Assembly (NCBI GenBank): GCA_040386995.1
Contig: JAZKES010000036.1
Span: 18,809 to 82,808, forward strand
Length of the DNA stretch: 64,000 bases
Direction: 5' to 3'
Origin: Pseudomonadota bacterium
GTDB lineage: Bacteria; Pseudomonadota; Gammaproteobacteria; Pseudomonadales; Pseudohongiellaceae
Shown here: piece by piece, positions 53,081 to 57,994 of the stretch
Layout: the number at the start of each line of letters is the position of its first letter
Numbering within the stretch: position 1 is the first letter of the stretch
Notes under the pieces: model-generated
Told to the model about the DNA's origin: nothing
The model's input: the letters and a program-made list of their open reading frames with translations, nothing else
Databases searched by the model: none
Translations under genes and position numbers: made by a program

Positions 53081-54943
53081 GTGACTCGTACTTTTTATGC
53101 TTTCCTCGCATCCCTCTTGATCCTGGTTACGTGGAATAGCGTCGCCCAGGAAACCAACACCGATATAACTGCACAGTGGGATTTGACTGATCTTTTCCCG
53201 AGTGTTGAGGCATGGGACCAAGAACGGCAGCGCATGCTTGTGGAATTTGACAAGATCGAAGTCTACAAGGGCACGCTCGGCGATAGCAGTGATTCACTTT
53301 ATAAAGCGTTGCGCTTTGTATCGGACACCTACCGTCAGGCGCTCAAGGTATACGTTTACTCAAGTTTGAATGGTGACGAAGATTTGCGCGAAACGGCTGC
53401 GCAAGAACGCAATCAGCTAGGCGAAGCAATGTTTGCGCGCATGAATGAAGCAACTGCGTGGATGGATCCGGAAATTATCGCGATAGGTGAAGAGCGCGTG
53501 CGACAATTCATGGATGACAATGTCGAACTGGCTCCGTTCCGACACCAACTAGACAACACACTACGCCGCGCATCACACACACTTGGCGCCGAAGCTGAAC
53601 AGGCGCTGTCATTCTTTTCACAATCGTTTGACGCGCCATCCAACATCTACAGCATTATTTCCAATTCTGACATTCCCTTCCCAACCTATACCTTGCCAAG
53701 CGGCGAAGAAGTACGCGTCGACTCACAAGGCTACGGTCGCCTGCGCTCCGACCCTGATCGCGAAGTACGCAAAGAAGTTTTCGATTTGTTCTGGAGCAAG
53801 TGGCAGGAATACAGCAACAGTGTAGGTATGGTTCTCAATAGCCATCTACAGACACAAGTGGCATTGGCCAAAGCGCGCAACTACGACAGCGTTCTTGAAC
53901 GCGAATTATTTGAAGACAACCTGCCGCCAGATGTTTACCACACACTTGTCGAAGAAGTGAACAAGGCCTTACCTACGCTTCATCGCTATTTCAGATTACG
54001 CGCGAGGATGTTGGGCGTAGAACAATTGCATTATTACGACATTTATCCGCCACTGGTCGCACTCGACAAACAATTCGATCTGGAGACGAGCAAAAAAACC
54101 ACGCTCGATGCTATGGCTATTCTTGGTGACGACTGGGTCACCATGCAGAAGGCGGCCATTGATGATCGCTGGATGCATGTTTATCCGCAACAAGGCAAAC
54201 GCAGCGGTGCTTATATGCAGGGTTCAGCGTATGACGTTCATCCCTATCTGCTGCTTAATCACAATAATGATTTTGATTCGTTGTCTACCTTCGCGCATGA
54301 GTGGGGTCATGCAATGCATACGCTGTATGCAAAACAGGAACAGCCATTTGAAACAGCTGATTACGCAACATTCATTGCAGAAATACCTTCGACCTCCCTT
54401 GAGCTGATCCTGCAGCAATATATGAGTAAGAATGCTGAAACCAGTGATGAGAAATTGTTCTACCTCGGCTATGCCCTTGAAAATCTGCGCGGTACATTTT
54501 TCCGTCAGACGATGTTTGCAGAATTTGAATTGAGTCTGTTCGAAGCCGTTGAAAATGGTGAAGCACTAAGCGGTAGCCGGATTTCTGAAATGTACGGCGA
54601 GATCCTGAAACGTTATCACGGTCACGATCAAGGCGTAGTTATTATTGATGACCTGTACTTCAACGAATGGATGTTCGTCCCACACTTTTATTACAACATG
54701 TACGTTTTTCAATACGCGACATCACTCACCGCCGGCACCGCGCTCTACAGCAAAATAGTTGAGGAAGGTGCGGCAGGTGTAGAGAACTACAAGAACTTGT
54801 TGCGTGCTGGCGGCTCTGATTATCCCTACGAATTATTACGCAACGCTGGCGTCGATCTCGCAACCCCTGCGCCCTATCAGTCCGTAGTCACACGGATGAA
54901 CTCGATAATGGATGAAATGGAAACGCTGCTGGACGAGCAGTAA
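53081..54943 (+). CDS. M3-family oligoendopeptidase (PepF-like), secreted
   Basis: 620 aa with a signal peptide (LLILVTWNSVAQE). HEWGH zinc motif with a downstream E. GTG start. Confidence 0.8.
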   Translation: MTRTFYAFLASLLILVTWNSVAQETNTDITAQWDLTDLFPSVEAWDQERQRMLVEFDKIEVYKGTLGDSSDSLYKALRFVSDTYRQALKVYVYSSLNGDEDLRETAAQERNQLGEAMFARMNEATAWMDPEIIAIGEERVRQFMDDNVELAPFRHQLDNTLRRASHTLGAEAEQALSFFSQSFDAPSNIYSIISNSDIPFPTYTLPSGEEVRVDSQGYGRLRSDPDREVRKEVFDLFWSKWQEYSNSVGMVLNSHLQTQVALAKARNYDSVLERELFEDNLPPDVYHTLVEEVNKALPTLHRYFRLRARMLGVEQLHYYDIYPPLVALDKQFDLETSKKTTLDAMAILGDDWVTMQKAAIDDRWMHVYPQQGKRSGAYMQGSAYDVHPYLLLNHNNDFDSLSTFAHEWGHAMHTLYAKQEQPFETADYATFIAEIPSTSLELILQQYMSKNAETSDEKLFYLGYALENLRGTFFRQTMFAEFELSLFEAVENGEALSGSRISEMYGEILKRYHGHDQGVVIIDDLYFNEWMFVPHFYYNMYVFQYATSLTAGTALYSKIVEEGAAGVENYKNLLRAGGSDYPYELLRNAGVDLATPAPYQSVVTRMNSIMDEMETLLDEQ

Positions 54944-55042: not shown

Positions 55043-56269
55043 TCAGACTATTTTTTGCTCTCTTTTGTTATTGTCATCGATGGCAGCCACAACACCCTTG
55101 CCAAACGTTGACTGCGTGTAGACCCGGTTGTTGGTCGCAAATGTCCTGACTGTGGTCCGTAACTTGATGTTGCCCAACAGCGCGGTCAACGCTCTCTGAT
55201 AATCACTTGCACTAACCTGATCAGCCAGTACTTTCGCAATACCAATTGCTTGCAGAGATAGTCCAACATGCAATTGTTCCAGATGCATCGGAAGTATCAG
55301 CATGGGTTTACCCAGCCGCATACATGCTGTGGCTGACCCGATATTGCCATGTCCTATGAAAATATCCGTTTCCCTGATAATCAGGTCCATCGCCGGCATT
55401 AGTGTCGTAAATTGCAGTGACTCCGACTGATATGGCTTTAGCGCTTCTGCATCTCCTCCAGCAAACACGACCAGTACTTCGCAGCCACTCGCGCGTAACG
55501 CTTCGACGAGCGGCGTGAATTTTTTATAGGATGGATCGAGCTGACAAACGACACGAGGTTTTTCAATTTGCGTGAAACTGAAAACCGGCGGCAGATACGT
55601 TGACATCGATGTGTAGTAGGTCACATTGCTACGCAGCTCTCGATAAATATCCAACTGTGGGAAGCTATCGATCATCACTCTATTACAGCGATAAAGTTCG
55701 GAAATAGTTGCAGACACAGGAAGATCAAGTTTTCTCTGCACCTGATTGATCACTTTCAACACTTGTTTTTCCTGCTCTTCGATCAGTTCAGCTCGCGATT
55801 GCATAGGTTGCCAGTCGGTAAGTTTGTAACCTGCAACAGGAATGTTGAAGCCATTCCCTACAATCAATCTTGTGCAGTTGAAATTTGATGCGGCGAGCAG
55901 CGCCGTGGGAGCTTGATCGAAAATAAGGACATCAGCCTGAAGCAAAACCAACAGCGCCTGCCAGGCTTTAACTAAAGGCAGTAGTGTGTTGATGTGCTCA
56001 TAACCCGAAAGCTGCAACGTATCGGCCAGACAAACCAGTTGGCGATTCAAGCGCAAGCGCGGCAGAAAAACCGGAGCCTGGAGTACCGTCATCGAAAGTT
56101 TATTGATCAGCGCGCTTGCCGAAATCAGGTCTCTCACAACCACGGTTACGTCATGCCCTGCATCACCACATTCTTTTGTGATGTCGTGCAGGCGCAACAA
56201 TTGCTCATAATTAGATCCAGAGCCAGAGCCGGAGCCAAGTTCGCAAATGTAGACAACCTTATATTTCAT
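55043..56269 (-). CDS. GT-B fold glycosyltransferase (GT1/GT28-like, UDP-sugar dependent)
   Basis: The C-terminal donor-binding signature GHGNIGSATACMRLGKPMLILPMHLEQ resembles the GT1 (MGT/RhlB-type) motif. The N-terminal loop is ELGSGSGSGSN. I prefer the start at ATG 56269 (MKYKVVY). Confidence 0.6.
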   Translation of the reverse strand: MKYKVVYICELGSGSGSGSNYEQLLRLHDITKECGDAGHDVTVVVRDLISASALINKLSMTVLQAPVFLPRLRLNRQLVCLADTLQLSGYEHINTLLPLVKAWQALLVLLQADVLIFDQAPTALLAASNFNCTRLIVGNGFNIPVAGYKLTDWQPMQSRAELIEEQEKQVLKVINQVQRKLDLPVSATISELYRCNRVMIDSFPQLDIYRELRSNVTYYTSMSTYLPPVFSFTQIEKPRVVCQLDPSYKKFTPLVEALRASGCEVLVVFAGGDAEALKPYQSESLQFTTLMPAMDLIIRETDIFIGHGNIGSATACMRLGKPMLILPMHLEQLHVGLSLQAIGIAKVLADQVSASDYQRALTALLGNIKLRTTVRTFATNNRVYTQSTFGKGVVAAIDDNNKREQKIV

Positions 56270-56525
56270 TGACGAACACTCATCGACAAACACTCATCCT
56301 GTACACCGAACCATTAAATTTTGTGGCAAACAAACTTCCTGCCCTTATAGAGCACTAAACTGCGCAATTTATCCCTTGTTAAAAAAATGATACTTCCAGC
56401 ATCGGGATAATTTCCCGAGCCCGCTCTAAAAAAAACAATCACCAACGAGAGCTTCGCAAGCACTCGTTATCCCCGTTCAAGCGGTTTAGTGGAAATTCAC
56501 ACTCGACAAACTCAAGACAAATTGT

Positions 56526-56555
56526 TTGACAGCGCTTCTCTCGCTAAATTAAAGT
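56526..56555 (+). promoter_or_regulatory. Sigma70-like promoter candidate for the leader and aminotransferase transcript
   Basis: TTGACA at 56526-56531, an 18-nt spacer, then TAAAGT at 56550-56555. Matched by eye only. Confidence 0.3.
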
Positions 56556-56580
56556 GCGGCCCCTCAACAGGACCCAACTC

Positions 56581-56694
56581 GTGATTCTCACTTCTTCCTA
56601 TCAACTTAATGCCATGGCGATCGCCGCAGCACGTGCAGCGGCACGTCGTCGCGCGCGCGCGAATAAGTTGCACTCTGGAGATCACAGGGCTTAA
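56581..56694 (+). CDS. Candidate Arg-rich leader peptide (37 aa from GTG 56581, or 26 aa from ATG 56614)
   Basis: AGGA at 56569-56572 lies 8 nt before GTG 56581. The translation is (M)ILTSSYQLNAMAIAAARAAARRRARANKLHSGDHRA*. There are 5 Arg codons between 56632 and 56658. The ORF is below the ORF-track cutoff. Confidence 0.3.
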   Translation: MILTSSYQLNAMAIAAARAAARRRARANKLHSGDHRA

Positions 56695-56737
56695 TGGGTT
56701 GAACAAATAGTTTTGTAACAACGCAGTAACCGCAAAA

Positions 56738-56772
56738 CCTCCAGATGTCTTAGACGCTGGGGGTTTTTTTTT
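56738..56772 (+). terminator. Orphan rho-independent terminator 31 nt upstream of the aminotransferase start (attenuator or sRNA terminator)
   Basis: CCTCCAG at 56738-56744 pairs with CTGGGGG at 56757-56763 (one G-U pair). An inner GTC/GAC stem has a triloop. Nine T follow at 56764-56772. No plus-strand gene ends upstream of it. Confidence 0.7.
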
Positions 56773-56803
56773 GGGCCCATAAAAACCGAGCAAGGAGAAA
56801 CAA

Positions 56804-57994
56804 ATGAACACAATCGAAATTGAAAATACTCTTGGGTTGTCTTTTTCAGAGCGCCTTGAACTGGCATTCACCCATGGGAAAGGGAGTTACGTATGGGATG
56901 AAGCAGGCAAGGAGTATCTGGATTTTACTTCCGGGTGGGGCGTGACCTGTCTTGGCCATAGCCATAGCGTGATCACCAAGGCGATTTCAGAACAGGCGCA
57001 TAAATTAATGCAGAGCCCCAACGCCGGTTTCACCTACTCTCCCGCGCGAGCAGCACTGCTGACGCAACTGGACAAAGTCTTGCCCGCAAATCTGCGGAAA
57101 ACTTTTTTCTGCAGCAGCGGTGCCGAGGCCAATGACGCAGCACTCAAACTTGCACGTAAATGTACGGGACGGACAAAAGTTATAAGTACTAAAGGTGCAT
57201 TCCATGGTCGTACGTTCAACACGTTATCGGTTTCGCGTGGTACCGATAATACCGGGCGTTATGTGCCTGTTATGCCGTCAACTTGCTTCATACCATACGG
57301 CGATATCAGCGCACTGGAAGCGAAAATTGATGATTCGTGCGCAGCCGTTATTGTCGAACCGATTCAGGGCGAAGGTGGCGTACAGATTCCACCTGCAGAC
57401 TATCTTGGGAGAGTGCAGGCGTTATGTAATACACATGGTGCATTCTTCATCGTCGACGAAGTGCAGACTGGCTTCTGCCGCACCGGTAAATTTTTTGCAC
57501 TGCAACATGAAGCTGCAGAAATTCAACCTGACATTCTGACTATGGGCAAAGGTATTGCGGGCGGGTTTCCATTTGCGGCGTTTGCTGTGAGTGCGCAAGT
57601 GGCAGACAGGTTCAGCAAGGATGATCACGGTGGTACGTATTGCGGCAATCCGCTCGGATGTGCGGTGGCAACCGCAGTGGTTGGTTTTCTGGCGGAGCAC
57701 GACGTGGCGCAGCGGGTAGAAACATCCGGCGCTTATCTGTTTGAGCAGCTACAGAATCTTTTGGTCAACTACCCGACGCTCATTCGCCAGGTGAGAGGAC
57801 GTGGTTTGCTGTGCGCAATAGAGTTTCATGACTCAACAATTACTCGCGCGTTTACTTTGCGCTGCGCTGAACATGGGCTGTTGGTCGTACCGACGCGTAA
57901 CGGAATTGTGAGGTTACTACCCGACTTGCTGGTTGCAAGAACAGACATAAAAAAAGCGGCGGAAATTCTAGCTGTGGTTTGTCGTGGAATGTAA
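56804..57994 (+). CDS. Class III PLP aminotransferase, acetylornithine/succinylornithine aminotransferase (ArgD) family
   Basis: 396 aa with GWGVTCLGHSH, DEVQTGFCRTGKFFA and PLP-Lys in TMGKGIAGGFP. AAGGAG RBS at 56792-56797. Confidence 0.8.
   Translation: MNTIEIENTLGLSFSERLELAFTHGKGSYVWDEAGKEYLDFTSGWGVTCLGHSHSVITKAISEQAHKLMQSPNAGFTYSPARAALLTQLDKVLPANLRKTFFCSSGAEANDAALKLARKCTGRTKVISTKGAFHGRTFNTLSVSRGTDNTGRYVPVMPSTCFIPYGDISALEAKIDDSCAAVIVEPIQGEGGVQIPPADYLGRVQALCNTHGAFFIVDEVQTGFCRTGKFFALQHEAAEIQPDILTMGKGIAGGFPFAAFAVSAQVADRFSKDDHGGTYCGNPLGCAVATAVVGFLAEHDVAQRVETSGAYLFEQLQNLLVNYPTLIRQVRGRGLLCAIEFHDSTITRAFTLRCAEHGLLVVPTRNGIVRLLPDLLVARTDIKKAAEILAVVCRGM

Follow-up and report, generated by a model that had tools for sequence, protein, structure and literature searches.

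A probable ribosome-mediated transcription attenuator with an alanine- and arginine-rich leader peptide upstream of an ArgD-paralog aminotransferase gene in Pseudohongiellaceae

The DNA analysed here (the window) is a stretch of 64,000 nucleotides (nt) from contig JAZKES010000036.1 of the assembly GCA_040386995.1, which belongs to a gammaproteobacterium of the family Pseudohongiellaceae. The subject of this work is the region between two genes of the window, one encoding a GT-B-like glycosyltransferase (55043-56293, minus strand) and the other a class-III aminotransferase on the plus strand. This region contains a sigma-70 promoter, a short open reading frame (ORF) dominated by alanine and arginine codons and an intrinsic terminator, whose end is separated by 31 nt from the ATG of the aminotransferase gene at 56804 (Table 1). 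An earlier note, made from the sequence of the window, had interpreted the region as a candidate arginine leader-peptide attenuator, or else a novel small RNA (sRNA), in front of an ArgD-family aminotransferase. When the sequence was read again, the parts that the note had listed (the promoter, AGGA followed by GTG, the in-frame ORF with five CGT/CGC codons, a seven-nucleotide complementarity between the ORF and the terminator, and the terminator with its nine U residues) were all found at the same coordinates. It was also right that the terminator ends no gene: the glycosyltransferase gene is transcribed divergently from the aminotransferase gene, and assignment of the terminator to this upstream neighbour was therefore rejected.

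In a consensus scan of the interval 55500-57500, TTGACA-18-TAAAGT outranked all other promoter-like sites, and the transcript is predicted to start near 56562. The AGGA is separated by an 8-nt gap from a GTG start codon (56581-56583); a second possible in-frame start is the ATG at 56614. The frame ending at TAA (56692-56694) encodes ...AIAAARAAARRRARANKLHSGDHRA, with the core AAARAAARRRARA, and has its five CGT/CGC arginine codons within 56632-56658. The stem-loop of the terminator (56738-56763) has a folding energy of -14.6 kcal/mol in RNAfold, whereas a simple terminator scan did not pick it up because the stem is interrupted. A search of Rfam with permissive thresholds yielded no family at its gathering threshold. 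The top match was NsiR1 (21.5 bits, gathering threshold 39), which aligned to the terminator part only, so that the hairpin was visible in this search as well. A further match was potC (20.4 bits, threshold 44). The His, Leu, Thr and Trp leaders and the gabT motif are among the Rfam families, and none of them reached its threshold for the leader region. With four A residues before and nine U residues after the hairpin (56734-56772), the terminator has the look of a bidirectional one, and there is no convergent gene to use the reverse direction.

Table 1. Features of the leader region and of the adjoining aminotransferase gene (positions refer to the window)
Feature	Positions	Strand	Sequence, basis or remark
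Sigma-70 promoter	56526-56555	+	TTGACA (56526-56531), 18-nt spacer, TAAAGT (56550-56555); 10/12 in consensus scan
G+C-rich stretch 3' of the -10 box and short 5' untranslated region (UTR)	56556-56580	+	GCGGCCCCUC; AGGA at 56569-56572
Leader ORF, 37 codons	56581-56694	+	(V/M)ILTSSYQLNAMAIAAARAAARRRARANKLHSGDHRA, stop; ORF list and homologues in 60 genomes
Segment 1 (predicted), early ORF	56593-56605	+	UCUUCCUAUCAAC; pairs with the segment 2 region when no ribosome is present; prediction only
Ala/Arg codon block	56617-56661	+	AIAAARAAARRRARA; G+C-rich; proposed ribosome-stalling (sensing) site
Segment 2, antiterminator 5' strand	56670-56680	+	GCACUCUGGAG; core TCTGGAG (56674-56680); folding with ribosome at the Arg codons
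Intrinsic terminator	56734-56772	+	A4, hairpin, U9; RNAfold
Segment 3, terminator 5' arm	56738-56749	+	CCUCCAGAUGUC; followed by loop UUA
Segment 4, terminator 3' arm	56753-56763	+	GACGCUGGGGG; followed by U9 tract (56764-56772)
Shine-Dalgarno sequence of the aminotransferase gene	56792-56797	+	AAGGAG
Class-III aminotransferase, 396 amino acids, ArgD/LysJ/OAT clade	56804-57994	+	Pfam PF00202, E 4e-110

Orthologs of the aminotransferase were present in 75 of the 151 sampled genomes of Pseudohongiellaceae. Leaders were taken from the regions upstream of these orthologs, which had been retrieved by protein search; 60 leaders from five genera of the family were parsed, and unless indicated otherwise the counts given below refer to this set. 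Retrieval through the aminotransferase protein was far more productive than BLASTN with the leader itself, which gave only six weak matches among the relatives. All 60 genomes had an Arg-rich mini-ORF, initiated by ATG, and a terminator in front of the aminotransferase gene, as the earlier note had suggested looking for. The promoter, in the form TTGAC(A)-17/18-TAnAGT/TAnATT, was likewise at the same place in 60/60, and so was the terminator frame AAAACCUC...GAGG-U7-10, with compensatory changes inside the stem; the hairpins had energies between -10 and -25 kcal/mol and were followed by 7 to 10 U residues in every sequence. The Shine-Dalgarno sequence and the start codon of the aminotransferase gene lay 22-110 nt 3' of the terminator. 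As most genomes leave no room there for a second promoter, transcription must reach the aminotransferase gene by readthrough. Two genomes of the same genus, L015 (G018) and L019 (G019), had 105-109 nt instead of 22-60 nt from the terminator to the aminotransferase start, with extra G+C-rich sequence in this spacer. Directly 3' of the -10 box the motif GCGCGCCUUC / GCCCGCCUC was kept in all genera (alignment A1). This G+C-rich motif, at 56556-56566 in the window, could be a stringent-type discriminator; alternatively, it could give the transcript a 5' end that mimics, as CCUC, the 5' arm of the terminator.

The unit was single-copy in the window's genome, where a search for a second copy found none; a repeat or mobile element was rejected as an explanation on this ground. 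In the relatives the leader always preceded this aminotransferase gene, or an operon containing it (see below), in the same orientation, and it was never found apart from it. When a diagnostic pattern was applied to 401 genomes representing 58 families of the order, it matched in 8 of 12 genomes of Pseudohongiellaceae and in one other. The sole match outside the family, L198 (G342:C4:31261-31384), in which no Ala/Arg block is evident, resembles a chance hit or a gene's 3' end. Among the matches listed in a contig-wide pattern scan, most were chance matches in unrelated phyla, but the scan revealed a second type of locus. A gene whose product, a GNAT acetyltransferase of about 260 amino acids, matches the Pfam families Rv0428c_C and Acetyltransf_1 follows the same type of leader in Pseudohongiella (genus g6) and in several metagenome-assembled genomes of unclassified gammaproteobacteria. 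These loci are L134 (G128:C6), L145 (Pseudohongiella sp. OZ244193.1), L131, L118, L121, L150, L137, L184 and L105; an example of a GNAT-linked leader peptide is MLLTQNSSVSTQAVAQAAAARRAARARSKSPGELWL. At least in genomes G128 and G076 the stop region of the GNAT gene lies directly upstream of the aminotransferase ortholog, and the unit is leader-GNAT-aminotransferase. The GNAT gene was not found in the window's genome.

The homologous leader ORFs comprised 26-70 codons, mostly 33-46, and their frame was kept in spite of this variation in length. Over the same span frame +1 contained stop codons in 53 and frame +2 in 43 of the 60 sequences. Leaders of all genera had the core AAA(A)RR(R)ARA or something close to it, with 3-6 Arg codons set among 6-10 Ala codons. 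CGT and CGC accounted for 269 of the 335 Arg codons (80%), and switches between CGT and CGC occurred among the leaders with the residue staying Arg. The leader peptides contained 29% Ala and 13.5% Arg, compared to 9.7% and 5.4%, respectively, in the proteome as represented by the long ORFs of the genome, an enrichment of 2.5-3 fold. The third codon position was the most variable one. In genus g9, which provided the largest set of same-length leaders (11 distinct sequences), single-nucleotide codon differences were synonymous in 427 and non-synonymous in 271 cases, whereas the neutral expectation is near 1:3. The conserved frame, the predominance of CGT/CGC among the Arg codons and the synonymous excess indicate that the leader ORF is in all likelihood translated and under coding selection. 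Searches of NCBIfam and Pfam with the leader peptide identified no family.

Within the leader ORF the sequence TCTGGAG (56674-56680) is complementary at every position to CTCCAGA (56739-56745) in the 5' arm of the terminator. When a ribosome was set on the Arg codons in the folding model, 56670-56680 (segment 2) paired with 56738-56748. In the window segment 2 begins 14 nt past the last Arg codon of the block, and the stop codon comes 12 nt after the end of segment 2. In all leaders it starts 14-29 nt past the last Arg codon, and thus it is free when a ribosome stands at the Arg run. The stop codon follows 1-17 nt after its 3' end in about 50 of the 60 leaders, so that a terminating ribosome there would cover segment 2. 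In most relatives segment 2 was predicted to pair also with the 5' UTR, the ribosome-binding site or the early ORF; the sequences and registers of this predicted pairing (segment 1) differ between clades, and a pairing is predicted all the same. The 2:3 versus 3:4 geometry that the earlier note had described for the window is thus conserved across the five genera, with a predicted competitor of the 1:2 type in the 5' UTR or early ORF.

To express the state of the switch in numbers, we used the ensemble free energy gained when the 5' arm of the terminator pairs with upstream RNA while the 3' arm is still to be transcribed, with the RNA covered by a ribosome masked. The following values (in kcal/mol) were obtained for the 60 aminotransferase-linked leaders, the nine GNAT-linked leaders and the window, respectively: -3.7, -1.3 and -6.1 (no ribosome), -7.3, -4.2 and -9.3 (ribosome at the last core Arg codon), and -1.8, -0.5 and -2.1 (ribosome at the stop codon). 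In both sets of leaders the order of these modelled pairing energies follows that of classical attenuation, and in the window folding with and without a masking ribosome, which the earlier note had proposed as a check, came out in its favour.

Two kinds of control were applied to these values. In the first, the intervening RNA was replaced by dinucleotide shuffles (40 for the window) and the stalled state was folded again. For the 60 leaders the shuffles averaged -3.6 kcal/mol, the mean z was -2.0, and z was below -1 in 47. For the window the -9.3 kcal/mol compares with -2.5 ± 1.6 kcal/mol for the shuffles (z -4.2), none of the 40 being as strong. In the second, 5' arms were exchanged between clades: the native combinations averaged -6.8 and the swapped ones -4.9 kcal/mol, and the native one was better in 40 of 60 cases (Wilcoxon p 1.4e-5). 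The parts of the switch are thus present and conserved, and the alternative pairings exceed both the shuffled and the swapped controls. The recurrence of the arrangement in 60 genomes of five genera and the superiority of the window's pairing over all 40 shuffles show that it is more than chance.

Covariation was assessed in a register-fixed manual alignment of 23 distinct combinations of segment 2 and 5' arm from genera g1, g2, g9 and g10. Of the 23 combinations, 17-23 were paired at each of nine helix positions and 12 at the tenth. Double-sided compensatory changes were seen at three antiterminator positions, two of them changing from U-A to C-G and the third from A-U to G-C. Per-sequence thermodynamics and the register-fixed alignment were used because the variable parts of the leaders are misaligned in a MAFFT alignment of the whole leader; for this reason RNAalifold recovered from the latter nothing beyond the terminator and a helix of 4 bp (GCCGC/GCGGC).

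Taken together, we consider ribosome-mediated (leader-peptide) attenuation of transcription to be the probable function of the region. This interpretation, offered by the earlier note for the window alone, is supported by the conserved anatomy in five genera, by an antiterminator that beats the shuffles and by its covariation with the 5' arm of the terminator. The proposed mechanism is the following. Transcription would begin at the conserved promoter, and a ribosome would translate the 37-codon leader. If this ribosome slows down in the Ala/Arg block (56617-56661), for which a shortage of charged tRNA-Arg(CGU/CGC) is the most likely cause, segment 2 would be left free to pair with the emerging 5' arm of the terminator (56738-56748), the terminator would not form, and RNA polymerase would read into the aminotransferase gene. 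A ribosome reaching the stop codon would cover segment 2, allowing the terminator hairpin to form and transcription to end at the U9 tract. Without translation, segment 2 would be held in part by the upstream segment 1, and termination would be favoured. The Ala/Arg block is itself predicted to fold into a local hairpin, which might act as a pause site for the polymerase. The stall site in the Ala/Arg block is a putative one, and readthrough would be the response to slow decoding.

Several observations weigh against this interpretation or limit its reach. The Shine-Dalgarno sequence before the leader start is weak or absent in 52 of the 60 leaders, in contrast to the strong one of the aminotransferase gene. 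The antiterminator is short (5-12 bp). In about 10 of the 60 leaders segment 2 would not be masked by a terminating ribosome, because either the stop codon is located 25-33 nt beyond it, or no compact segment 2 defined by the minimum free energy (MFE) structure exists upstream of the stop. Genera g2 and g10, part of g5 and several of the GNAT-linked leaders reached only -2 to -5 kcal/mol, and the native combinations there were no better than the swapped ones. A crude count of ungapped 12-mer complementarity, a test of low power, was significant (p <= 0.05) in 10 of the 60 sequences, and the switch statistics, including the Wilcoxon test of the swaps, ignore phylogeny. In addition, Ala codons equal Arg codons in enrichment and conservation, which pure sensing of Arg-tRNA does not require; thus arginine may not be the sole input. 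Finally, the canonical ArgD is a different protein from the regulated enzyme, and the canonical arg genes are without such leaders (see below). As to the RNA switch itself, support for a mutually exclusive antiterminator is strong in the window's own genus and weak in g2, g10 and some of the g5 and GNAT-linked leaders.

The aminotransferase belongs, as the earlier note had stated, to the ArgD/LysJ/OAT clade, but it is a paralog of ArgD and not the ArgD of this genome. Its top NCBIfam model was the ArgD subfamily TIGR00707, with 371.6 bits, which is below the cut-off of 410; the protein also remained below the cut-off of every other NCBIfam model. A separate, true ArgD (469 bits) is encoded on contig C20 and is 36% identical to the leader-linked protein, and for this reason the region was rejected as a leader of the canonical argD. 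Among solved structures, the closest relatives of the leader-linked protein are the acetylornithine/acetyl-lysine aminotransferases 1vef, 2e54 and 2ord (E about 5e-74); aminotransferases of succinylornithine, putrescine and ornithine come next. Canonical ArgA and ArgJ are encoded elsewhere in the genome, and the same was found in ten relatives that were checked. With the true ArgD, ArgA and ArgJ located elsewhere, the standard arginine pathway is independent of the leader-linked aminotransferase. A search of the genome for other mini-ORFs with Arg runs and terminators found none that was convincing. The N-terminal domain of ArgR (PF01316) was not found in the 92%-complete assembly, though ArgA, ArgJ and ArgD are present. 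Since the enzyme is not the canonical ArgD and the arg genes have no such leaders, the simple scheme in which shortage of arginine induces its synthesis is unproven. Thus, of the arginine attenuator originally proposed for the window, the conserved Arg run stands, whereas a link to arginine biosynthesis is not established; Ala codons are equally enriched, and in other lineages the leader stands before a GNAT-aminotransferase operon.

In several genomes of the same genus (L010, L011, L016, L018, L021 and L026) a gene for an M3 oligopeptidase (PepF-like) ends directly upstream of the leader promoter. In the window the glycosyltransferase gene (55043-56293, minus strand) sits between the M3 oligopeptidase gene (53081-54943, plus strand) and the leader. 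Because the relatives have the PepF-like gene directly before the leader, the glycosyltransferase gene looks like a lineage-specific insertion.

As to the signal, our preference, by a modest margin, is for arginine as the main input, to which alanine or the general speed of translation may contribute. Arg-tRNA was chosen because RR(R)AR is the most invariant part of the peptide, lies at the 3' edge of the block and keeps a fixed distance from segment 2. These same features speak against the strongest of the alternatives, in which the RNA switch is the same and its input is not Arg-tRNA: the Ala-rich leader would report, for instance, alanine shortage or general translation stress, the Arg codons being one slow point of several. 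Such an input appears unlikely, yet there is something to be said for it. Alanine is enriched three-fold, at least as strongly as arginine; the Ala positions beside the Arg run are conserved; and some leaders have just two or three core Arg residues, such as AAALIRARA or AAERAAACGRAPA. On the other hand, the GCN codons may be kept in part for the G+C-rich local hairpin, and no enzyme role linked to alanine has been shown. A precedent for alanine sensing exists in mycobacteria, where the upstream ORF (uORF) of whiB7 contains 25-40% Ala and works via a rho-independent terminator and an antiterminator, and where the whiB7 response helps cells with the alanine shortage that results from inhibition of the alanine aminotransferase aspC (PMC10274678). 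The whiB7 attenuator of mycobacteria and other actinobacteria resembles our leaders in its Ala-rich uORF and in its terminator/antiterminator pair, and there stalling in the uORF leads to readthrough, with the composition of the uORF setting the starvations that are sensed. The phylum is unrelated, however, and the sequences show no similarity; the target of the whiB7 attenuator is a transcription factor with a large regulon, whereas here it is directly an enzyme gene, and the Arg run is a feature of the Pseudohongiellaceae leader and not of the whiB7 uORF.

What the aminotransferase, and the GNAT-aminotransferase operon of the relatives, might do in the cell can be suggested from the family assignments. 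The combination of a GNAT protein with an acetylornithine-type aminotransferase fits, and would be compatible with, metabolism of N-acetylated ornithine or glutamate-semialdehyde. A much bolder proposal, which we regard as doubtful, is that the leader defines a hitherto undescribed type of arginine- (or Ala/Arg-) starvation regulon, in which the GNAT protein and the ArgD-like aminotransferase form a bypass from glutamate-semialdehyde/P5C to N-acetylornithine and the conserved AAAARRRARA nascent peptide, in addition to its codons, takes part in sensing. Such a bypass, switched on by the leader, would skip the feedback-inhibited ArgA, ArgB and ArgC steps, which is equally doubtful; it would resemble the Mpr1 route of yeast.

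Another alternative keeps the choice between terminator and antiterminator and replaces its trigger. The leader peptide would be a ribosome arrest peptide that senses arginine, ornithine or an N-acetylated intermediate in the exit tunnel, in the manner of TnaC or SpeFL. Purifying selection on the peptide does extend beyond the Arg codons, the Arg run ends at an almost invariant 25-30 residues from the start codon, a span similar to that of the exit tunnel, and the C-terminal tails (EMPETL, GELWF, KGMPG and ETEFIC) are conserved within clades; moreover, leaders with Arg codons and ornithine sensing are known for speF (PMC6386406). Against these points, the N- and C-terminal parts are wholly different between genera, no known arrest motif is present in the leader peptide, and the conserved C-terminal codons overlap segment 2; as they coincide with it, their conservation is explained by the RNA pairing. 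We judge an arrest peptide to be quite improbable.

More improbable still is that the unit from promoter to terminator is an independent gene, for a small basic protein, a precursor peptide for the GNAT protein and the aminotransferase, or a trans-acting or dual-function sRNA, with the downstream gene expressed by constitutive leakage through the terminator. The strong promoter and the strong terminator do bound a discrete transcript of about 210 nt (predicted), the peptide is conserved, which would fit an independent gene, and a precedent exists in other peptide-modification clusters, where a precursor gene and its leaky terminator stand ahead of the modifying enzymes. However, the weak Shine-Dalgarno sequence is unlike that of a highly expressed peptide, neither the covariation between segment 2 and the 5' arm nor the placement of the stop codon relative to segment 2 would be needed, and the unit occurs nowhere apart from the operon and matches no Pfam, NCBIfam or Rfam family. 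The sRNA offered by the earlier note as its second choice is disfavoured because of the invariable linkage of the leader to the operon in the same orientation. A riboswitch was rejected, as the frame of the ORF, the synonymous changes and the placement of the stop codon point to translation.

Textbooks describe leader-peptide attenuation of the His, Trp, Leu, Thr, Ile/Val and Phe operons, whereas arginine is taught as being under the control of the ArgR repressor. The Pseudohongiellaceae leader shares with the classical proteobacterial attenuators (trpL, hisL, leuL, thrL, pheL and ilvL/ivbL) a promoter-proximal short ORF in which codons for one or two amino acids are clustered, an intrinsic terminator just before the structural gene and an antiterminator strand at the 3' end of the ORF, which a ribosome standing on the stop codon would mask. 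A competing segment further upstream is predicted here, which would complete the 1:2, 2:3, 3:4 logic. It differs from them in that the cluster consists of Arg and Ala codons, and in that the target is an ArgD-paralog aminotransferase, with or without a GNAT protein, and no recognised biosynthetic operon. Furthermore, the predicted segment 1 is in the 5' UTR or start region and not on the regulatory codons, the Shine-Dalgarno sequence is weak, and no Rfam model matches.

Control of speF involves Rho-dependent termination, sensing of ornithine by the nascent peptide and rare Arg codons. The leader ORF of speF (orf34/SpeFL) in Salmonella and E. coli is similar to ours in that, in a gammaproteobacterium, consecutive Arg codons couple the rate of translation to a gene related to ornithine and arginine (PMC6386406). 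In contrast to speF, the leader described here has a canonical intrinsic terminator and common CGT/CGC codons, and the peptides are dissimilar. The fungal arginine attenuator peptide (AAP, the uORF of arg-2/CPA1) is likewise a short upstream peptide tied to the control of an arginine-related gene, but it is eukaryotic and translational, works at high arginine by nascent-peptide arrest and has neither a transcription terminator nor a run of Arg codons; the resemblance is in name only. In the searchable full-text literature no bacterial terminator/antiterminator leader with Arg codons for arginine-family enzymes was found. The nearest published cases are the speF leader (PMC6386406) and the fungal AAP, of which the latter works differently.

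If the interpretation is true, this compact element of about 250 nt, an Ala/Arg leader occurring family-wide, would lengthen the list of amino acids that are read by ribosome-mediated attenuation. It would mark the uncharacterised GNAT-aminotransferase pair as responsive to amino acid supply, which would narrow the search for its substrate, and it would offer a handle on gene regulation in the Pseudohongiellaceae, which are mostly uncultured marine bacteria.

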